This document shows positions 9,180 through 27,230 of a stretch of 64,000 nucleotides of DNA, piece by piece; positions within the stretch are counted from its first letter, which is position 1, and every line of letters begins with the position of its first letter. The notes under the pieces were generated by a model. That model worked only from the letters and a program-made list of their open reading frames with translations. It was not told the origin of the DNA and searched no databases. The DNA comes from Escherichia phage ECO07P2. Made by a program: the position numbers and the translations under genes. Location of the stretch: the sequence record OP172785. The stretch is one strand, 5' to 3'.

Positions 9180-9641
9180 TCATTGAGTTTTAATTACTGC
9201 TTTAGAAGCCTTTCCTGGTAAACGACGACTGTTAATAATTGCCATCCTGCATTGAAGCGACGGGTCTTTGAACTTCGCATTAGGTTTACAAACTGTAAAT
9301 CCAAGCCAAAGATTTCCATCTGTGATTTCTAAACGCCCAGGACGATATTCAACCCCATCAATAAAATCCTCGTCAATGTCAGGACGCGGAGGCATACTCA
9401 GGAATTCATTAACTTCTAAAACATGGTCTTTTATTTTATGGAATAATTCAAAAACATATGTCTCATCAATCTCCCGTTGAATTGCACGATCAAGAAGATG
9501 CTGAGAATATTTTAGATGAAACGATGAGACCCCTGCTGCTTTTGATGCCTCACGAATCTCATTGTTAATTTGACGAAACTCCGACTCAAAGTGACGACGG
9601 AGCTTATTTCGACGGATAAAAACTTCTGTGTTGATAGTCAT
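9180..9641 (-). CDS. regB: RegB site-specific endoribonuclease
   Basis: 153 aa, same length as T4 RegB, located between vs.1-like gene and early promoter; assignment by length, synteny and recalled sequence. Confidence 0.8.
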   Translation of the reverse strand: MTINTEVFIRRNKLRRHFESEFRQINNEIREASKAAGVSSFHLKYSQHLLDRAIQREIDETYVFELFHKIKDHVLEVNEFLSMPPRPDIDEDFIDGVEYRPGRLEITDGNLWLGFTVCKPNAKFKDPSLQCRMAIINSRRLPGKASKAVIKTQ

Positions 9642-10827: not shown

Positions 10828-11157
10828 TCAATTAGAAAATAAATTTATCCAAGATTGTTCTTTAATTAAAAATGGCTCAGAATCATATGCCATTAAACTT
10901 TGGGTGATTAGTCCTTTAAAAGGCCCATCAATAAATTCCATGGTAAAATATGGAATTTTATTCATTAATCTTGCATTAGGAGCAGTGCACAAAACTCTGC
11001 ATCCTTTGAATACGCCTTTTTGTAATTTGTATTGCTTAGGATAAAATTCGCTCAAGACGTTGTTATTTGCCAAAATTTCAAAATGATTCACCAATTTATT
11101 TTTAATAGTTTTTGGCGAAAAATAAAGATATTCGAAAAGTTGCGTATCTGTCATCAT
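10828..11157 (-). CDS. hypothetical protein (about 109 aa)
   Basis: start moved to ATG at 11157/11154 in an ATGATGA overlap with upstream stop. Confidence 0.45.
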   Translation of the reverse strand: MMTDTQLFEYLYFSPKTIKNKLVNHFEILANNNVLSEFYPKQYKLQKGVFKGCRVLCTAPNARLMNKIPYFTMEFIDGPFKGLITQSLMAYDSEPFLIKEQSWINLFSN

Positions 11158-11691
11158 TGCATTCCGATTACGAAAAACTGTGGACGAGTAATACCACCAG
11201 TACAGCATTTACTATTGCAGCAGTGTTGCACAGTTTCAATATGAATATCGTAAATTTTATCCATATCAGGAGATTTAACAGGCTCATCGATTATATACAA
11301 AATTCGAGAAAGCGATAAACCTCTGAACTTGCTACCTCTATTACCAACAAAACTACGGACAGAATCAGTAAATAAGCGGAATCGAATATCATCATTAGAA
11401 TAACGCGAAAATTCTTTTTTAATGTGGCCCGCAGAAATTTTAGCGTAAGCTGAAGTATTAGAAAGAACAATAACTGTTCCACCATCATACAGCCAATTAG
11501 CAGCAAAGTTAGTCACAGCAGTTGATTTACCAGATTGACGTCCACCATCTAGTCGAAGTGTGCAATACTGCTTAAGTAAGTCTTCAAATGGTGGGATATA
11601 ATCGTTTTTACAAATTTCTTCTACTCTAGCATCAGAATGGTGTGTAAAAGCATTCATCAGGGATAGATAAGGACCAGTTAAAAATGTTCTC
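11154..11691 (-). CDS. small P-loop NTPase-like protein
   Basis: about 179 aa from ATG 11691; Walker A-like GGRQSGKST and hydrophobic-DE stretch ILYIIDEP. Confidence 0.5.
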
Positions 11692-11727
11692 ATTTTATTC
11701 TCTCTAAATTTGGGCCATTCCATGGCG

Positions 11728-11762
11728 CATGAATTGTCCATTTCTGTATTTACCCATTACCG
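11728..11762 (-). repeat. copy 1 of a 35-bp conserved intergenic element (second copy at 12374-12408)
   Basis: 33/35 identity between the two copies; both sit 40-90 nt upstream of minus-strand gene starts. Confidence 0.6.
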
Positions 11763-11846
11763 CACTTGGGCTCGACCTTATTACAGGTTGGCGGGAATCC
11801 CTCATAGAACCATGAGGTCCAGCTTGTTCCCATATTTCTTATTTGC

Positions 11847-12320
11847 TTATTTGAATGATTTGACGTACTGAATAGAGCCTTTGCTATTCACGAAAGCGAT
11901 TTTACCATTTTTATTATACATGGTAGCAGTACGCTGATAGCCATAAGTTTGCTTACCAGATTGATAACCAACTAATGCAAAATTATCTTCACCCATTTTA
12001 TTCTGTTTAGCACGAATGCGTTCATGACCATGCGCCATAAGAACCTTAGCATCACCAGTTGCAATGGATCTACGAGTTTTTTCATCTTCAACTGTATTAA
12101 CAAAGTCGTCAAATGAATCAAATTTAGCGTGAGATTTATTATACAGTTTTCCATCTACTGCATAATTGTATCCCTGTACATCCATCTCAACTTCTGTACC
12201 ATCATCCAATACAGCAGTGATTTTTTGACCTTTTTTAAATTTCAAAAGATCAGTAAAAGATTCAGCAATAATTTGAGAATTAATAGCTGCCTCAGTAATA
12301 AATTCTTGATATGTTTTCAT
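11847..12320 (-). CDS. capsid-targeting-sequence (CTS) protein, internal-protein-like
   Basis: 157 aa; N-terminus MKTYQEFITEAA is the T4 CTS shared by IPI, IPII, IPIII and Alt and cut by gp21 after Glu. Confidence 0.7.
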   Translation of the reverse strand: MKTYQEFITEAAINSQIIAESFTDLLKFKKGQKITAVLDDGTEVEMDVQGYNYAVDGKLYNKSHAKFDSFDDFVNTVEDEKTRRSIATGDAKVLMAHGHERIRAKQNKMGEDNFALVGYQSGKQTYGYQRTATMYNKNGKIAFVNSKGSIQYVKSFK

Positions 12321-12360
12321 GTTATCCTTTAAATGTAAATAGTTTTATTCTTTAAGTTTT

Positions 12361-12408
12361 GGACAATTCACACGCATGAATTGTCCGTTTCTATATTTAC
12401 CCATTACC
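12361..12408 (-). repeat. copy 2 of conserved intergenic element, with perfect 10-bp inverted repeat
   Basis: ggacaattca-cacgca-tgaattgtcc hairpin (12361-12386) overlapping the 35-bp core shared with 11728-11762. Confidence 0.6.
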
Positions 12409-12427
12409 AGGTTCGAAATCGGCTTTA

Positions 12428-13006
12428 TTAAGAATTACCACGGGCTGCATTAGCAACGGCGTAAGCGTACTGAACATTAGCGTCTTTAAACGTACCTTTA
12501 GAGGTATCTAGTTCTGCCTTAAAGCCGCCTTTAGTCATAACCTCGGCGAATTCTTTACGGAAAGCCATTGCATCAAGGCTTCTCCATGACGATTTGTGCT
12601 TGGCGAATTCAAGACCAGCGTAGTTGACAGCCTTAGCTAATTTATTATCAATAACCCATTTACCAGCTTTAGGCACAAATACCGGGCCTTTCTGTTTGGA
12701 GAATAGTTTTAAATTCCAGCGACGAAGGTCACCGTCAGCTTTAACAAAAGCTGCGTCCAAGTTACTAGCAACAACATCTTGAATATGGCCAAATTTAAGC
12801 CCATCAACTTCAATATTTAGATCAGTACGCCAGCGAAGTCCTTCCCAAGCGAAAGCTTTAAAGTCAGAAGCCTTTGTAGCTAAATACCGTTCAATAGGAG
12901 CTGTTTTAGGGTCAAAGCCGTTTCCTCGGTAAGTCCACTCATCTTTATTAATGCCTTTGGCCTTTTCCACAGAAGCTTCAGTGATAAATTCTTTATAGGT
13001 TTTCAT
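12428..13006 (-). CDS. CTS protein (IPIII-sized internal protein)
   Basis: 192 aa; N-terminus MKTYKEFITEAS; length close to T4 IPIII (194 aa) but identity not verified. Confidence 0.7.
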   Translation of the reverse strand: MKTYKEFITEASVEKAKGINKDEWTYRGNGFDPKTAPIERYLATKASDFKAFAWEGLRWRTDLNIEVDGLKFGHIQDVVASNLDAAFVKADGDLRRWNLKLFSKQKGPVFVPKAGKWVIDNKLAKAVNYAGLEFAKHKSSWRSLDAMAFRKEFAEVMTKGGFKAELDTSKGTFKDANVQYAYAVANAARGNS

Positions 13007-13021
13007 GTGTTTCCTTTATTT

Positions 13022-13336
13022 TTATTCTTTAGGGAAGTTTTTAGAATATGCATCATAAAGCTTATTTCCAATACGGCGGAAAACTCTAGCCGCAAAACGA
13101 TTTTCTGGGTTTTTAATCATGATTTGCATCATATAAGTACCCGCGTCAGAAAGAGCTTCTTCATAGTACCCGTTAATTTCTTTAAGAGTCCTACGTTTAC
13201 CACCAGGACCATCAACAGTGATTTTCCATTTACCTGTAGAAGTGCGACTTGGCGGCTCAACTTGTTCAATCCAGATATAACCGCCTTCTACACGTTGGTT
13301 GGCGGATTCTGCAATAAATTCTTTATATGTTTTCAT
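13022..13336 (-). CDS. CTS protein (IPII-sized internal protein)
   Basis: 104 aa; N-terminus MKTYKEFIAESA; basic small protein. Confidence 0.7.
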   Translation of the reverse strand: MKTYKEFIAESANQRVEGGYIWIEQVEPPSRTSTGKWKITVDGPGGKRRTLKEINGYYEEALSDAGTYMMQIMIKNPENRFAARVFRRIGNKLYDAYSKNFPKE

Positions 13337-13366
13337 TTTTGTTTCCTTGTTTATTTTGATAGAGTA

Positions 13367-13396
13367 ATTATACCATATTAATACTTAAGCGTAAAC
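13367..13396 (-). promoter_or_regulatory. T4-type early promoter
   Basis: gtaaac 13391-13396, attata 13367-13372 (TATAAT), spacer 18. Confidence 0.6.
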
Positions 13397-13452
13397 CGTT
13401 TAAGCTTCACCGCCAGAAATAATTCCGAAGTTGTTAAATTGATACGAGTCAT
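13378..13452 (-). pseudogene. denV: relic of denV (endonuclease V) reduced to 24 codons
   Basis: minus-strand ATG at 13452 behind GGAGG encodes MTRINLTTSELFLAVKLKRFTLKY then stop; first 11 residues match T4 endonuclease V MTRINLTLVSEL as recalled. Confidence 0.5.
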
Positions 13453-13479
13453 AATTTCCTCCAAGTAGTTGATGAATGT

Positions 13480-13509
13480 ATAGTATCAAAGTCCTTGGAG
13501 GAAGTAAAC
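13480..13509 (-). promoter_or_regulatory. T4-type early promoter
   Basis: gtaaac 13504-13509, atagta 13480-13485, spacer 18. Confidence 0.6.
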
Positions 13510-13510
13510 A

Positions 13511-13792
13511 CTATTTTTCTGAAGCGCCTGAAATATATTTTTCAAGACGTTGTTTCATTAGCGAGCCGTTCTTAGCGATTTCTTCTGGTTTATCGCACAT
13601 ACGCAACAAGGCTTCAAGCTTAACGATATCGCTGGTACGTTCAAATTTGCGAGTATCTATCTTACTAGCAAGTTCAGAAATACGTGCTAATAGACTTTCA
13701 GCTTCAACCAAAGCTGCACCTAGCTTAGTTGCAAAGGTGTCAGTAGCTTCGTTAAGAATAGATTCTGATAAAAATTCACTATATGTTTTCAT
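13511..13792 (-). CDS. CTS protein (internal-protein-like, 93 aa)
   Basis: ATG at 13792 overlaps lysozyme stop; N-terminus [11 protein letters not shown]; track start at 13807 is a TTG. Confidence 0.65.
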
Positions 13793-14277
13793 ATATACGC
13801 TTTCCAAGTTCCTGTTTTAAATGTTGAGATTACGCGTTTCGCGCGATTAGGTGTCTGACGATACCATTTAGATTGGGCTAGATTTACTGCCGCTTCATCC
13901 CAGCGTTTTTGTTGAAGCATACGAAGAGAATTAGTAAAACCAGCGACGCCTGCTACACCCATTTGGAAGACCATATTGACCAACGCACATCGACGAACTG
14001 CATCTAAAGAATCATATACCGGTTTAAGTTTAGCATTACCCAAGATTCCGCGAACGGCTTTATCAACGTCTTCATTAAATAGCTTTTCAGCCTCATCAAG
14101 GGTAATTGTACCGTTGCATTTACGTCCGATCATTCTGTCAAGTTCAGCTTTAGCTACGGCTAAAGACGGGTTCTTTGTTACTAAATGGCCTATGCCAATC
14201 GTCCAAAAGCCTTCAGTGTCTTTGTATAAAGTCAGTCTAAGACCTTCATCTATACGCAACATTTCAAATATATTCAT
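13789..14277 (-). CDS. e: endolysin (T4 lysozyme e, muramidase)
   Basis: 162 aa; [28 protein letters not shown] matches T4 lysozyme with scattered substitutions. Confidence 0.95.
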
Positions 14278-18718: not shown

Positions 18719-18794
18719 TGGTCGAGGCAGTAGGGATCGAACCTACGACCTAGGACTTAGAAGGTCCTTGCTCTTCCTTCTGAGCTATGCCCCG
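18719..18794 (-). tRNA. tRNA-Arg (anticodon UCU), CCA encoded
   Basis: hand-folded cloverleaf on minus strand; anticodon loop CUUCUAA; GGTTCGATCC T-arm. Confidence 0.8.
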
Positions 18795-18798
18795 TAAT

Positions 18799-18874
18799 TG
18801 GGGTGACCGATGGGAGTCGAACCCATGACTACGAGAATCACAATCTCGAGTTCTACCAACTGAACTACGGCCAC
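18799..18874 (-). tRNA. tRNA-His (anticodon GUG) with extra 5-prime G
   Basis: anticodon arm CGAGA-UUGUGAU-UCUCG; G-1 pairs with C73; T-arm GGGTTCGACTCCC. Confidence 0.7.
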
Positions 18875-18988
18875 ATTAATATCTACTCCAACAATCAAGA
18901 TGTCTTCACACGAAATTAAGAGAAGAGTGATCAGTTCAACCCCGATAATCGCGTCAAGTAGATATTAATGTGACAGTTGTCACAAATT

Positions 18989-19063
18989 TGGCGGACGTGA
19001 TAGGATTCGAACCTATAACCAATCGCTTAACAGGCGATCGCTCTGCCATTGAGCTACACATCC
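18989..19063 (-). tRNA. tRNA-Asn (anticodon GUU)
   Basis: anticodon arm ATCGC-CUGUUAA-GCGAT; T-arm ATAGG-TTCGAAT-CCTAT. Confidence 0.7.
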
Positions 19064-19067
19064 AAAT

Positions 19068-19154
19068 TGGTGGGGAGTGATGGAGTCGAACCACCCGAGT
19101 CGCAATGACAATGGATTTACAGTCCACACCGCTACCTCTACGGGATAACTCCCC
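19068..19154 (-). tRNA. tRNA-Tyr (anticodon GUA), long variable arm
   Basis: acceptor GGGGAGT/ACTCCCC; anticodon loop CUGUAAA; class II length 87 nt. Confidence 0.65.
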
Positions 19155-19167
19155 TTAATTCTTAATT

Positions 19168-19242
19168 TGGTGGCCCTGGGTGGAATTGAACCACCATCTG
19201 GCGATTATGAGTCGCTTGCTTGAACCTTCCAGCTACAGGGCC
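19168..19242 (-). tRNA. tRNA with CAU anticodon (T4 tRNA-Ile-like; Met by anticodon alone)
   Basis: anticodon loop CUCAUAA; adjacent to tRNA-Thr as the T4 Thr-Ile pair. Confidence 0.65.
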
Positions 19243-19243
19243 T

Positions 19244-19319
19244 TGGTGCTGATTGACGGAATCGAACCGCCGACCTTCTCATTACAAGTGAGTTGCTCTA
19301 CCTACTGAGCTAAATCAGC
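19244..19319 (-). tRNA. tRNA-Thr (anticodon UGU)
   Basis: acceptor GCTGATT/AATCAGC; anticodon loop CUUGUAA; T-arm GGCGG-TTCGATT-CCGTC. Confidence 0.75.
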
Positions 19320-19324
19320 AAAAC

Positions 19325-19414
19325 TGGCGGAGGCGATAGGATTTGAACCTATGAGTCGCCGGAGCGACTGCCGGTTTTCAAGACCGGTGCATTAAACCAC
19401 TCTGCCACGCCTCC
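19325..19414 (-). tRNA. tRNA-Ser (anticodon UGA), long variable arm
   Basis: anticodon arm CCGGT-CUUGAAA-ACCGG; 90 nt class II. Confidence 0.75.
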
Positions 19415-19416
19415 AG

Positions 19417-19490
19417 TCTCCATACAAGGATTTGAACCTTGGACCTCCTGATCCCAAATCAGGCGCTCTACCAAACTGAGCTACACGGAG
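19417..19490 (-). tRNA. tRNA-Pro (anticodon UGG), CCA not encoded
   Basis: anticodon arm CCTGA-UUUGGGA-TCAGG; only 2 nt from tRNA-Ser 5-prime end (dimeric precursor as in T4). Confidence 0.75.
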
Positions 19491-19500
19491 TAAATTAAAT

Positions 19501-19574
<74 letters not shown>

Positions 19575-19579
19575 AAATT

Positions 19580-19666
19580 TGGTGCGAGAAGTGGGACTCG
19601 AACCCACAAGGAAATCATTCCGCAGCATTTTAAGTGCTGTGCCTTTACCAATTTGACCATTCTCGC
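19580..19666 (-). tRNA. tRNA-Leu (anticodon UAA), long variable arm
   Basis: anticodon arm CAGCA-CUUAAAA-TGCTG; 87 nt. Confidence 0.75.
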
Positions 19667-19667
19667 G

Positions 19668-19740
19668 CTGGGAATAAAGGACTCGAACCTTTGCATCCTG
19701 GAATCAAAATCCAGTGCCTTACCAACTTGGCTAATTCCCA
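19668..19740 (-). tRNA. tRNA-Gln (anticodon UUG), CCA not encoded
   Basis: acceptor TGGGAAT/ATTCCCA; anticodon arm CTGGA-UUUUGAU-TCCAG; 1 nt from tRNA-Leu (Gln-Leu dimeric precursor). Confidence 0.75.
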
Positions 19741-25519: not shown

Positions 25520-27230
25520 TAACCTTAATTGGTTTGTTGGTGTTGTTGAAGATAGAATGGACCCATTAAAATTAGGTCGTGTTCGTGTTCGTGTAGTTGG
25601 TCTGCATCCACCTCAAAGAGCCCAAGGCGATGTAATGGGTATTCCAACTGATAAATTACCATGGATGTCAGTTATTCAACCTATAACTTCTGCAGCAATG
25701 TCTGGAATTGGAGGTTCCGTTACTGGACCAGTAGAAGGAACTAGAGTTTATGGTCATTTTTTAGACAAATGGAAAACTAACGGAATTGTCCTTGGTACTT
25801 ATGGCGGAATAGTTCGCGAAAAACCTAATAGACTTGAAGGATTTTCTGACCCAACTGGACAGTATCCTAGACGTCTAGGAAATGATACTAACGTATTAAA
25901 CCAAGGCGGAGAAGTAGGATATGATTCGTCTTCTAATATTATCCAAGATAGCAATCTAGACACTGCGATAAATCCTGATGATAGACCGCTATCAGAAATT
26001 CCAACTGATGATAATCCAAATATGTCAATGGCTGAAATGCTTCGCCGTGATGAAGGATTAAGACTAAAAGTTTATTGGGATACTGAAGGATATCCGACAA
26101 TTGGCATTGGTCATCTTATCATGAAGCAACCAGTTCGTGATATGGCCCAAATTAATAAAGTTTTATCAAAACAAGTTGGTCGTGAAATTACCGGAAATCC
26201 AGGTTCTATTACAATGGAAGAAGCGGTAGCTTTATTTGAACGTGATTTGGCTGATATGCAACGTGACATTAAATCACATTCTAAAGTTGGCCCAGTTTGG
26301 AAAGCAGTTAATCGTTCTCGTCAAATGGCATTAGAAAATATGGCATTTCAGATGGGTGTCGGCGGTGTAGCTAAATTTAACACAATGTTAACTGCTATGT
26401 TAGCCGGAGATTGGGAAAAAGCATATAAAGCTGGTCGTGATTCATTGTGGTATCAACAAACAAAAGGCCGTGCATCCCGTGTTACCATGATTATTCTTAC
26501 AGGTAATTTGGAATCATACGGTATTGAAGTGAAAACACCGGCTAGGTCTTTGTCAGCAATGGCTGCTGCTGTAACAAAGTCTTCTGATCCAGCTGACCCT
26601 CCTATTCCGAATGATTCGAGAATTTTATTTAAAGAACCTGTTTCTTCATATAAAGGTGAATATCCGTATGTTCACACAATGGAAACTGAAAGCGGTCATA
26701 TTCAAGAATTTGACGATACCCCGGGACAAGAACGATACAGATTAGTCCATCCGACTGGAACATATGAGGAAGTATCACCGTCAGGAAGAAGAACAAGAAA
26801 AACTGTTGATAATTTGTATGATATAACAAATGCTGATGGTAATTTTTTGGTAGCTGGCGATAAAAAGACTAATGTCGGTGGATCAGAAATTTATTACAAC
26901 ATGGATAATCGTCTTCACCAAATAGATGGAAGCAATACGATATTTGTGCGTGGCGATGAAACTAAGACAGTTGAAGGTAATGGAACTATCCTAGTCAAAG
27001 GTAATGTTACTATTGTAGTTGAAGGTAATGCTGACATCACAGTTAAAGGAGATGCTACCACTTTAGTTGAAGGTAATCAAACTAATACAGTAAATGGAAA
27101 TCTTTCTTGGAAAGTTGCTGGGACAGTTGATTGGGACGTTGGTGGCGATTGGACAGAAAAAATGGCATCTATGAGTTCTATTTCATCTGGTCAATACACA
27201 ATTGATGGATCGAGGATTGACATTGGCTAA
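25503..27230 (+). CDS. 5: baseplate hub and tail lysozyme gp5 (cell-puncturing spike)
   Basis: 575 aa; internal lysozyme domain MAEMLRRDEGLRLKVYWDTEGYPTIGIGHL; C-terminal VEGN/VKG beta-helix repeats. Confidence 0.95.
   Translation: MEMISNNLNWFVGVVEDRMDPLKLGRVRVRVVGLHPPQRAQGDVMGIPTDKLPWMSVIQPITSAAMSGIGGSVTGPVEGTRVYGHFLDKWKTNGIVLGTYGGIVREKPNRLEGFSDPTGQYPRRLGNDTNVLNQGGEVGYDSSSNIIQDSNLDTAINPDDRPLSEIPTDDNPNMSMAEMLRRDEGLRLKVYWDTEGYPTIGIGHLIMKQPVRDMAQINKVLSKQVGREITGNPGSITMEEAVALFERDLADMQRDIKSHSKVGPVWKAVNRSRQMALENMAFQMGVGGVAKFNTMLTAMLAGDWEKAYKAGRDSLWYQQTKGRASRVTMIILTGNLESYGIEVKTPARSLSAMAAAVTKSSDPADPPIPNDSRILFKEPVSSYKGEYPYVHTMETESGHIQEFDDTPGQERYRLVHPTGTYEEVSPSGRRTRKTVDNLYDITNADGNFLVAGDKKTNVGGSEIYYNMDNRLHQIDGSNTIFVRGDETKTVEGNGTILVKGNVTIVVEGNADITVKGDATTLVEGNQTNTVNGNLSWKVAGTVDWDVGGDWTEKMASMSSISSGQYTIDGSRIDIG

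Follow-up and report, generated by a model that had tools for sequence, protein, structure and literature searches.

Why does a 35-bp sequence occur twice, 647 bp apart, around one internal-protein (IP) gene of a Tequatrovirus, each time shortly before a minus-strand start codon, and is it a signal in its own right? We analyzed the window containing both copies, that is, the whole 64-kb stretch of DNA. The 35-mer is probably a fragment of a larger RNA element and is seen twice because of recombination in the hyperplastic IP locus. The larger element appears to be a deeply conserved, so far unannotated folded RNA region upstream of the gene vs.8. The repeat copies and the genes around them are:

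11727..11761, minus strand: copy 1 of the 35-mer, GGUAAUGGGUAAAUACAGAAAUGGACAAUUCAUGC on the sense strand (pattern search)
12374..12408, minus strand: copy 2 of the 35-mer (pattern search)
11154..11693, minus strand: vs.8, encoding a 179-aa P-loop protein (phrog_1488; T4 annotation)
11847..12320, minus strand: Ip4, an internal-protein gene of 157 aa (DUF7412, 5.7e-96; phrog_3155, internal virion protein)
12428..13006, minus strand: an IpIII-like internal-protein gene (phrog_5341), ending in a TAATAA stop that forms the left junction of copy 2

A pattern search of the 64-kb window allowing up to three mismatches gave two matches, written on the plus strand as 11727-11761 and 12374-12408, and no third copy; 100 dinucleotide shuffles gave none. 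The two copies are direct repeats around Ip4, identical at 33 of 35 positions with the mismatches confined to the two N positions of the pattern. The initial annotation had reported this duplication at this identity and placed copy 2 correctly; copy 1 begins one base earlier than it gave (11728-11762), because the pattern search places the match at 11727-11761. Frequent occurrence of the motif genome-wide, which it had named as counting against its reading, was not seen: the window holds exactly two matches. The near end of copy 2 lies 53 nt from the Ip4 ATG (12320), within the 40-90 nt that had been claimed for both copies, and that of copy 1 only 33 nt from the vs.8 ATG (11693), outside it. 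Ungapped likeness reaches 58 nt at 79% (11726-11783 versus 12373-12430; repeat family D2), with the flanks of the 35-mer alike at about 40-70% only.

Neither copy matches any T4 promoter class, early, middle or late, as the initial annotation had maintained. The GTTTAC, TGCTT and TATAAATA boxes are missing from both copies in the window, where the late-box position reads GGTAAATA in each (6/8 of TATAAATA); the TGCTT MotA box is also absent from both repeat units and their 60-nt flanks, and a sigma-70 scan found nothing at either copy. Relatives offer some grounds for a weak or remnant promoter, either a decayed early one (GGGTAAATA where other genera have GGGTTTACA) or, in some copy-2 versions, one of late type. 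The orthologous position in Mosigvirus-, Dhakavirus-, Jiaodavirus- and Kanagawavirus-type phages reads GGGTTTACATA, which contains the T4 early -35 box, and copy 2 of Shfl2, ESh24 and TB004 reads GATAAATA, 7/8 of the late box. However, no consistent -10 hexamer follows GTTTAC (candidates are AATTAT, TAACAT, AAACAT and CCATGT), and neither copy carries the early sigma-70-type promoter consensus of the T4/PST-type PeSL (promoter-early stem-loop) cassettes, TTTACW-N17-TAYWAT (PMC4122927). We regard a promoter origin as very doubtful, and the 35-mer is no free-standing promoter or operator.

The surroundings of copy 1 point instead to a leader RNA. Copy 1 lies in a non-coding block that separates Ip4 from vs.8 and has the following parts, from 5' to 3' on the sense strand:

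11712-11817, minus strand: non-coding block of ~105 nt upstream of vs.8, found in T4 and >1000 phage records
11800..11817, minus strand: P0 hairpin, CCUCAU-GGUUCU-AUGAGG (RNAalifold pairs 46-71 to 49-68, 28/28 sequences)
11749..11796, minus strand: predicted three-way-junction RNA core of 48 nt (covariance model R1, covariation counts and compensatory variants), which comprises the next six entries
11789-11793, minus strand: 5' strand of helix P1
11785-11788 and 11775-11778, minus strand: helix P2, ACCU/AGGU, with loop GUAAUA at 11779-11784
11772-11774, minus strand: joining strand CGA
11762-11771, minus strand: helix PJ, a hairpin of 3 bp, GCC-CAA-G(U)GC
11757-11761, minus strand: joining strand GGUAA
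11753-11756, minus strand: 3' strand of P1, U-(G)-GG
11712..11730, minus strand: invariant 3' block of the vs.8 leader, AUGCGCCAUGGAAUGGCCC, almost without variation across 28 T4-like sequences that represent at least 7 genera
11691..11705, minus strand: vs.8 ribosome-binding region AGAGAG (11700-11705) and ATG (11691-11693), from the sequence and homologue comparison

P0 directly follows the Ip4 stop in the window and denV in T4. A single compensatory variant, CCUUAU/AUAAGG, occurs in one homologue (L044), and the SA21RB annotation has a rho-independent terminator overlapping this hairpin. Copy 1 straddles two parts of the leader, namely the 3' end of the three-way junction (11749-11761) and a small hairpin, AUGGA-CAA-UUCAU (11729-11741). 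The invariant joining strand GGUAA and the 3' strand of the closing helix make up its first 10 nt (GGUAAUGGGU); the remaining 25 nt form the Tequatrovirus variant of a small, lineage-specific hairpin that leads into the invariant block. The 3' block, AUGYGCCANGGAAYGGCCC, varies at three positions only (Y, N and Y) and ends 6-7 nt before the vs.8 ribosome-binding site. The view of the 35-mer as an element in itself, which the initial annotation had taken, therefore falls: copy 1 is the edge of the junction plus the start of the vs.8 leader, and copy 2 lacks the junction.

The junction is conserved as nucleotide sequence and not as protein. CCAACCTGTAATAAGGTCGAGCCCAAGTGCGGTAA is identical between phages whose Vs.8 proteins are only 62-65% identical, and reading frames through it differ or hold stops from one phage to another. 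A coding explanation, in which the repeat would encode a small peptide (MGKYRNGQFM...) or the N-terminus of Vs.8, can point to the two differences between the copies, both of which fall at synonymous third positions of the frame ATG GGT AAA TAY AGA AAY GGA CAA TTC ATG, to the T4 annotation, which starts vs.8 at an upstream ATG and runs through the region, and to a 33-aa ORF annotated there in G4498. In other phages that frame is stopped or shifted, the frame of the conserved 3' block differs among T4, the window and L016, the rV5-like version has no start codon, and no Shine-Dalgarno sequence is present. Moreover, the 31-nt core lacks any synonymous variation, the opposite of coding constraint, and we rejected both the small ORF and the N-terminal extension as highly improbable. 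The vs.8 ORF itself is conserved in all homologues from MRTFLTG onward; Vs.8 has weak similarity to terminase ATPase and no informative match in Pfam or PDB.

The covariance model R1 gave a single match in the window (70.6 bits, E 2e-23) and no further copy of the junction in the 64 kb; the next match, at 25608-25643 (E 0.7), lies inside the gene 5 coding sequence and was dismissed as chance. For the covariation count, which covered 24 distinct sequences, P1 was modelled as a closing pair followed by a bulged G and then further pairs. The score was 0.235, compared with 0.079 in shuffles, none of which (0/500) reached it, and a maximum of 0.068 in slid controls. Pair types in this count were AU12/UA5/UG4/GC2, CG17/GC5 and CG19/GC3; an A-U pair of P2 becomes G-C in two lineages; and PJ occurs as GCC..G(U)GC, GCG-CAA-UGC, GCG-CAA-CGC, GCC-CGC-GGC and GUC-CGC-GAC. 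Independent compensatory variants occur in P0, P1, P2 and PJ. G-U pairs are used at the P1 closing pair (UG in 4 sequences), in PJ (GU) and at pair 5-46 (GU in 6 sequences); on the opposite strand such positions would become A-C mismatches, and the structure therefore belongs to the sense-strand RNA. With conserved helices that compensatory changes support on one strand, the leader appears to be a structured cis-regulatory or non-coding RNA.

Both joining strands are nearly invariant, and the P2 loop has the form G-U-R-R-N-A and always reads UAA, UAG or UGA. One P2 pair is broken in two sequences (the ACAU variants). Fold stability at copy 1 is ordinary (z = -0.14 over 150 nt and +0.10 over the 48-nt core), and with helices this short the fold would depend on tertiary contacts or a partner. 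Since much of the core is invariant, it is silent for or against pairing. Pairing of the invariant 3' block with a junction strand or with the 5' GGGAUUCC segment was no better than in shuffles. A long-range RNAalifold model was rejected for clashing with the better-supported P2 and PJ helices, as were single-sequence minimum-free-energy folds, which disagree between lineages.

Conservation could also act on the DNA, as a binding site for a protein or a homing endonuclease or as a recombination hotspot. The 31-bp stretch identical across genera, the recombination junctions inside the element and an inversion of the copy-2 loop, a DNA-level event, would all accord with this. But the helices covary with arbitrary sequences and G-U pairs, which are meaningless for duplex DNA, and the sense-strand orientation relative to the neighboring genes is always kept. 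We therefore consider purely DNA-level conservation very unlikely.

The initial annotation had proposed a search of other T4-like genomes, which found copy 1 in T4, between denV and vs.8, and the leader block in >1000 phage records. The junction core extends further, to rV5-like phages, Kagunavirus and phage contigs of ~46-70 kb, where it usually lies upstream of tRNA clusters (7 loci). In the rV5-like phages it sits between two near-consensus promoters (consensus matches only), and in Kagunavirus Ivi it is inside a 338-nt insertion. pSe_SNUABM_01 lacks the junction, and its vs.8 leader begins at GGTAAATACAG; some Tequatroviruses keep the vs.8 leader without the junction, which is therefore dispensable at least in some hosts. 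On these distributions the junction is a separable module.

Rfam 15 gave four matches between 11500 and 12600 at E<=10, all far below gathering scores; they fall within genes, except that one (E=7.5) extends partly across copy 2, and none touches copy 1 or the leader block (11712-11817). In five other loci, from rV5-like phages, Kagunavirus, Gelderlandvirus and Winklervirus, it gave nothing over the element at E<=1. ARAGORN found no tRNA or tmRNA at the element. We rejected a host origin, as the element had no match in 5,426 E. coli genomes and the core was not found in 185,579 bacterial and archaeal species genomes. The literature on T4 sRNAs, transcription maps and catalogues of phage structured RNAs held nothing specific to the element, and the core sequence was not found in the literature searched; a catalogue of 10,006 candidate viral csRNAs (PMC10690425) could contain the motif.

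Copy 2 has a different history. Its features are:

12343..12421, minus strand: copy-2 unit of 79 nt, a paralogue of the vs.8 leader in truncated form (junctions set by comparing SA21RB and T4)
12361..12386, minus strand: perfect 10-bp hairpin, GGACAAUUCA UGCGUG UGAAUUGUCC (inverted-repeat search and folding)
12321..12342, minus strand: internal-protein leader CTATTTACATTTAAAGGATAAC, directly before the Ip4 ATG and found before IP genes in T4, SA21RB, RB33 and others

The copy-2 unit covers the parent leader from the P2 loop through the ribosome-binding region of vs.8. Model R1 does not match it, and its join with the ipIII stop lies at the microhomology TAATAA(A/G)G. The corresponding spacer is 12 nt in SA21RB and holds a PeSL in T4. 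The perfect inverted repeat that had been described for copy 2, with a degenerate version in copy 1, is borne out: the arms lie at 12361-12370 and 12377-12386 around a loop at 12371-12376, and as RNA the hairpin reaches -15 kcal/mol (z = -4.77), whereas in copy 1 only ~6-7/9 positions are pairable and the only hairpin is a weak one of 5 bp. In ESh24 the arms read GGGCAATTCA/TGAATTGCCT, with a compensatory change and a G-U pair, and in VEc74 and TB004 the loop is inverted. Copy 2 is a truncated duplicate of the vs.8 leader in which the junction was lost and the 3' block was remodelled into a perfect hairpin.

If both 35-mers were instead working copies of one cis-regulatory site, a repressor operator or an RNase site co-regulating vs.8 and Ip4, one would expect the 33/35 identity against poorly conserved flanks, the location of both copies 33-53 nt before a start codon, and the fact that even diverged copy-2 versions keep 30-31/35 identity to copy 1. 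Copy 2, however, is present in only ~12 of roughly 460 Tequatrovirus-type records; altogether 15 records have two copies, and most genomes have the sequence in one place. RB33 and SA21RB carry Ip4 without copy 2. The left third of the 35-mer drifts in Shfl2, ESh24 and TB004 (GGTAATAGATAAATA, GGTAATTGATAAATA), and the loop inversion removes the last 3 nt of the match. The initial annotation had offered a 5'-UTR structure, a recombination footprint, and an operator or processing site as roles. The first suits copy 1 and the second copy 2; a shared operator or processing site for both genes is unsupported because copy 2 lacks the junction and, in the other phages that have it, the left half of the 35-mer drifts and the hairpin arms alone are kept. 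We judge such a site unlikely. The identity of the two copies is nonetheless beyond simple decay when set against their flanks, and therefore calls for gene conversion or an additional function of the segment; gene conversion across 647 bp in a highly recombinogenic phage would also explain it.

On the sense strand the copy-2 hairpin is followed by AAAACUU, which therefore does not provide the U tract of a terminator. On the plus strand a U-rich tail comes next, and copy 2 could be an intrinsic terminator (hairpin plus GUUUCUAUAUUUA) that keeps antisense transcription out of the IP genes, its tail being supplied by the left part of the 35-mer, which is conserved. A consensus scan reports this site at 12360-12387 on the plus strand (tail TTTCTATATT), the hairpin-adjacent TAAATAYAGAAAC is kept in copy-2 orthologues while GGTAATGGG drifts, and loop inversion would leave such a terminator unaffected. 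Yet the scan found 2 terminator-like sites where 2.2 are expected by chance, only 4 of the 10-11 stem pairs are G-C, no plus-strand gene or promoter was identified nearby, and the G-U pair of ESh24 in minus-strand RNA is a C-A mismatch in plus-strand RNA. This explanation is quite unlikely.

The neighbors of the repeats (ipII, ipIII, Ip4 and denV) vary among T4, RB33, SA21RB, G4498 and pzk-kv4. In pzk-kv4 two full copies flank an ipII-like gene, and the second is a chimera whose 5' half is T4-type and whose 3' half is Jiaodavirus-type. This arrangement resembles the PeSL cassettes of T4-type phages (Arbiol et al. 2010, PMC2839356; Comeau et al. 2014, PMC4122927), in which a short conserved intergenic motif with a stem-loop lies in hyperplastic regions, flanks variable small genes (here internal-protein genes) and provides homology for cassette gain and loss. 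Copy 2 stands exactly where T4 has its PeSL between ipIII and ipII, a stem-loop is present (the 10-bp perfect stem of copy 2; the weak 5-bp hairpin of copy 1), and the copies flank Ip4 at a location where gene content differs among relatives. Besides lacking the promoter, the repeat differs from PeSLs in its one or two copies per genome, compared with dozens, and in its parent, a three-way-junction RNA conserved far beyond T4-like phages.

We propose that the junction acts as sense-strand RNA that binds a putative host or phage factor, and that it may control vs.8 translation or the processing, stability or read-through of early transcripts; its role might be that of a factor-binding element of early transcripts or of the vs.8 leader. 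The invariant core would double as a homology patch through which phages exchange IP cassettes, in the manner of PeSL elements. Copy 2 would be without junction function, and its hairpin may be an intercistronic RNA stem-loop that replaces the T4 PeSL stem-loop, or may have been perfected by DNA-level palindrome correction.

T4 has translational operators in 5' leaders, including the gene 32 pseudoknot, the gene 43 hairpin operator and the RegA sites. As a conserved, structured, untranslated RNA just upstream of the ribosome-binding site of an early gene, copy 1 with the block before vs.8 fits that pattern; it differs in having no sequence or structural similarity to these operators, and the junction module occurs without vs.8 in other phage families. 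Nascent-RNA antitermination and leader elements, such as the HK022 put RNA and the boxB-boxA leaders of rrn operons, are small multi-helix RNAs downstream of a strong promoter and upstream of untranslated tRNA or stable-RNA genes. By analogy, the junction in rV5-like phages and the ~46-kb contigs may occupy a comparable context, and P2 could be likened to a boxB-type short hairpin with a GNRA-like loop. In contrast to these elements, the junction lacks boxA, put consists of two stem-loops rather than a three-way junction, and the T4-like junction is 7 kb from tRNAs. T4 stable RNAs C and D (species 1 and 2) lie in the tRNA cluster and are likewise small ncRNAs of T4-type phages linked to tRNA genes; the covariance model found no second junction in the window, the whole tRNA cluster (18719-19740) included, and these RNAs are therefore not homologous to the junction. 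Possible resemblances to twister and hammerhead cores, the SRP Alu UGUAAU turn, the tmRNA tag end, the 23S GUAAUA 1095 loop, the tRNA-Tyr anticodon loop and CsrA GGA sites are leads only, none of them backed by a test.

The 48-nt junction could represent a new class of phage ncRNA under near-absolute constraint, with a conserved partner and with its core serving as the crossover point for IP cassettes between genera, a reading in which our confidence is slightly less than even. The class would span Straboviridae (T4 included), Vequintavirinae, Kagunavirus and other enterobacterial phages, typically heading tRNA operons outside the T4-likes; its roles would be, for example, read-through or processing of untranslated RNA, decoying of an RNA-targeting factor, or small-molecule sensing. 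T4 is among the best-studied genomes, yet this non-coding block, more conserved than the surrounding genes, is absent from Rfam and the searched literature; its presence in >1000 sequenced phages of several families would make it a worthwhile target for RNA biology. It would also be a second kind of homology patch, besides PeSLs, for swapping internal-protein (anti-restriction) cassettes, which is relevant to the evolution of host range and to engineering T4-like phages for therapy. Existing annotations are corrected, since the RNA is overlain by several small 'hypothetical proteins' and, in T4, by the N-terminal extension of vs.8. The 'endonuclease' adjoining the element in TU01 is a denV fragment rather than a homing endonuclease.

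The repeat lies in a Tequatrovirus (T4-like) genome segment in which nudE, e (lysozyme), four internal protein (IP) genes, vs.8 and vs.7 follow one another, all on the minus strand. A pattern search allowing up to 3 mismatches gave exactly two matches to the 35-bp element in the 64-kb window, where chance predicts none. The duplication described in the initial annotation is real, with copy 2 (upstream of Ip4) at 12374–12408 as reported and copy 1 (upstream of vs.8) at 11727–11761, one base from the position first given. The identity of 33/35 and the perfect 10-bp inverted repeat in copy 2 (arms 12361–12370 and 12377–12386) were confirmed, as was the lack of early, middle or late promoter boxes in either copy. 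Ungapped likeness of the two copies extends to 58 nt (79%), and the copy-2 hairpin as RNA has a folding energy of -15 kcal/mol (z = -4.77).

Copy 1 is present in T4, after the denV stop and ahead of the conserved vs.8 start, where it falls within the GenBank-annotated N-terminal extension of vs.8. The comparison drew on viral, metagenomic and GenBank phage collections, from which both vs.8 loci and pattern matches were taken. Conservation of a ~105-nt block (window 11712–11817) exceeds that of the flanking genes, and CCAACCTGTAATAAGGTCGAGCCCAAGTGCGGTAA is unchanged between phages whose Vs.8 proteins are only 62–65% identical. Reading frames through the block differ between T4, the window and Mosigvirus/Dhakavirus-type phages, stops are present, and the rV5-like version lacks a start codon; the block is thus constrained at the level of nucleic acid. 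By BLAST, more than 1000 phage records match the block or its core.

Alignment of 21–25 distinct versions of the core gave a three-way junction as the best-supported fold, which is arranged with its neighbors as follows, in the direction of vs.8:

11800–11817, minus strand: upstream hairpin P0
11749–11796, minus strand: 48-nt junction core, made up of the next five elements
P1: closing helix, variable in sequence
P2: hairpin ACCU-GUAAUA-AGGU
Joining strand after P2: CGA
PJ: 3-bp hairpin GCC-CAA-G(U)GC
Second joining strand: GGUAA, then the P1 closing nucleotide and a conserved bulged G
11729–11741, minus strand: small hairpin AUGGA-CAA-UUCAU in the variable segment
11712–11730, minus strand: invariant 3' block AUGYGCCANGGAAYGGCCC, directly 3' of the variable segment
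11700–11705, minus strand: vs.8 ribosome-binding site (vs.8 ATG at 11693)

The sense-strand sequence of copy 1 is GGUAAUGGGU followed by AAAUACAGAAAUGGACAAUUCAUGC. Its first ten bases are the joining strand GGUAA and the P1 3' strand, and the rest is the Tequatrovirus-specific form of the variable segment, including the small hairpin. In other genera GGGTTTACATA, with the early -35 box of T4 inside it, occupies the position of GGGTAAATA, and a consistent -10 is missing downstream of it.

Existing annotations over the block clash. The vs.8 gene of T4 (L002, NC_000866, 64835–64912) is annotated as 219 aa from an ATG within P0, that of RB33 (L003, 962–1549) begins with the small-hairpin ATG, and in G4498 (L004, 1386–1487) a separate 33-aa ORF is called. 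The conserved Vs.8 protein begins at MRTFLTG, so the upstream extensions are probably annotation artefacts.

The helices covary on the sense strand. The covariation score was 0.235 compared with 0.079 in shuffles (0/500 shuffles reached 0.235), with pair counts from an alignment fitted to the covariance model of the core and so biased toward the structure; a MAFFT alignment agrees for the closing pair. Sliding the 3' partner by 1–3 columns lowered the score to 0.068 or less. The P1 closing pair is AU in 12 sequences, UA in 5, UG in 4 and GC in 2, and the next two pairs are CG/GC at 17/5 and 19/3. In P2, G-C replaces A-U twice, once in the Gelderlandvirus lineage and once in the diverged tandem copy of contig L073; PJ occurs as GCG-CAA-UGC (PTK), GCG-CAA-CGC (CIP9), GCC-CGC-GGC (L077) and GUC-CGC-GAC (L073); and P0, retained in 28/28 T4-like sequences, carries one double change (CCUUAU/AUAAGG). 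P2, PJ and P0 are each backed by independent compensatory variants. G-U pairs are confined to the sense strand, which indicates that the structure is an RNA in the gene direction. Against a strong autonomous fold, the copy 1 region is thermodynamically ordinary (z = -0.14 and +0.10), much of the core never varies and is hence silent on pairing, and one P2 pair is broken in two sequences. We consider it highly probable that the junction functions as a structured RNA.

Two other folds were considered. A single long hairpin for the core (ViennaRNA) is disrupted by the PJ variants, and long-range pairing between the junction and the invariant 3' block (RNAalifold) is at odds with P2 and PJ and fares no better than shuffled sequences.

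Across all junction homologues compared, the P2 loop (window 11779–11784) reads GUAAUA, GUAAAA, GUAACA, GUGAAA, GUAGCA or GUAGAA. Positions 2–4 are invariably UAA, UGA or UAG, in a sample too small to separate this from 'two purines, not GG'. Three or more lineages evolved GUAG-type loops. In L066, a ~70-kb phage contig, the tRNA cluster includes an amber-suppressor-like tRNA with anticodon CUA (9535–9610; labelled tRNA-Pyl by ARAGORN), and the junction P2 loop in this contig is GUAGAA.

The junction is distributed as a module. The model matched the window once (70.6 bits) and did not match copy 2. In Vequintavirus (rV5-like) genomes a pair of sigma-70 promoter-like sites, both near consensus, flanks the junction, and a small ORF and a tRNA cluster lie downstream; in phage contigs of ~46–47, ~70 and ~118–141 kb the junction lies 200–570 nt upstream of same-strand tRNA genes (7 loci). 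In Kagunavirus Ivi (L022, 313–650) the endolysin gene is followed by a 338-nt insertion, missing from close relatives (compared with ORH_001, L063), and the junction sits within it. Besides the junction, the insertion contributes an intrinsic terminator and a 24-codon ORF that has a good ribosome-binding site, and so looks like a moron-type module. Karamvirus/Kanagawavirus-type contigs have two tandem junctions before vs.8, ~110 nt apart (L077 9020–9179, plus strand; L073 5093–5251, minus strand); the second is strongly diverged, with all three helices preserved through compensatory changes. Conversely, Salmonella phage pSe_SNUABM_01 retains the vs.8 leader from GGTAAATACAG onward without the junction, as apparently do F26 and LF82-5, judged only by partial BLAST query coverage. 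Both the tandem copies and the leaders without a junction support modularity.

In the ~46-kb contigs the junction belongs to an array in which long hairpin units (CACAACAGGUAAUGGC ... GCCAUUUCCGUUGUG) bracket ~60-nt inserts, and tRNA-Ser/Thr/Arg/Met genes follow directly downstream; array and tRNA genes together resemble a multi-RNA operon. The arrays are located at:

L026 5000–5600, minus strand
L068 8400–8980, minus strand
L075 1880–2480, plus strand
L079 190–700, minus strand

Copy 2 is, on sequence comparison, a truncated paralogue produced by cassette shuffling. The ipIII-Ip4 spacer is 41 nt in SA21RB, holds a promoter-early stem-loop (PeSL) in T4, and contains a 79-nt insert in the window (12343–12421). 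At the left end of the insert the ipIII stop TAATAAAGC is fused to P2 loop sequence of the parent element (TAATAAGG), followed by a decayed junction strand (GCCGAGTTCGAACCYGGTAAT compared with GGTCGAGCCCAAGTGCGGTAAT in the parent), the 35-mer, a remodelled 3' block and a terminal AAGAATAAAA, a match to GAGAATAAAA of the vs.8 ribosome-binding region. The insert is followed by the usual IP-gene leader CTATTTACATTTAAAGGA. Copy 2 occurs in 15 records (~12 phages), among which GGTAATGGG drifts and the hairpin arms stay; the ESh24 arms GGGCAATTCA/TGAATTGCCT show an A-U to G-C double change and a G-U pair. In VEc74 (L059, 1841–1866) and TB004 (L062) the hairpin loop is inverted relative to the window (12361–12386), CACGCA versus TGCGTG, a 6-nt flip inside a perfect palindrome that points to either template switching or recombination within the molecule. 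The six changes that make GCCAUGGAAUGGCCC a perfect partner of GGACAAUUCA look like quasi-palindrome correction, a DNA-level process, so the conserved copy-2 stem is no proof of RNA function.

Recombination junctions fall within the element. Ip4 lies between the two copies, which are direct repeats spaced 647 bp apart, and Klebsiella phage pzk-kv4 has two complete elements flanking an ipII-like gene, the second chimeric, T4-type in its 5' half and Jiaodavirus-type in its 3' half, which indicates a crossover within the invariant core.

The closest known system to the duplication is PeSL-mediated modular shuffling. The element resembles PeSLs in location, stem-loop and flanking of variable IP genes, but lacks their defining early promoter and high copy number and so is not a PeSL. 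By analogy with PeSLs (PMC2839356, PMC4122927), the invariant core may serve as a homology patch for IP-cassette exchange, of which copy 2 would be a by-product; its hairpin may work as an intercistronic stem-loop or merely persist. The junction RNA itself may bind a conserved host or phage factor. In T4-like phages it may regulate vs.8 translation jointly with the invariant block beside the ribosome-binding site; more generally, it may affect how early, partly untranslated transcripts are processed, how stable they are or how they are read through, a role that would be consistent with its position heading tRNA operons in other phages. The nearest analogues of copy 1, in function only, are T4 translational operators and the leader/antitermination RNAs of untranslated operons. 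We favor, with some reserve, the overall picture of a conserved junction RNA, IP-cassette exchange and copy 2 as its by-product, and regard the locus as a recombination-scarred regulatory cassette; any single specific biochemical role for the junction RNA is doubtful.

The core had no match in Rfam 15, in E. coli genomes or in 185,579 bacterial and archaeal species genomes, and its sequence was not found in the searchable literature. The junction may be among the unlabelled candidates of a large viral csRNA catalogue (PMC10690425). It matches no curated RNA family, and there is a substantial chance that it represents a new one.

The four tandem IP-type genes (11847–13807, minus strand) share the N-terminal capsid-targeting sequence MKTY(K/Q/S)EF. 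The DNA of this common N-terminus and start region makes up a 34-nt repeat family, D1 (12289–12322, 12975–13008, 13305–13338 and 13761–13794). The IP-gene leader TATTTACATTTAAAGGAAACAYATG (window 12321–12342) recurs before every IP gene, and decayed copies (TATTTACATTTAAATAACATGGGAA) just upstream of P0 in four comparison loci (L005, L008, L013, L014) suggest that IP genes were formerly deleted at that spot. Eleven tRNA genes (Gln, Leu, Gly, Pro, Ser, Thr, Met, Tyr, Asn, His, Arg) are clustered at 18719–19740 of the window, on the minus strand like the element and ~7 kb upstream of it; gaps of 115 nt and smaller within the cluster could leave room for T4-type stable RNAs.
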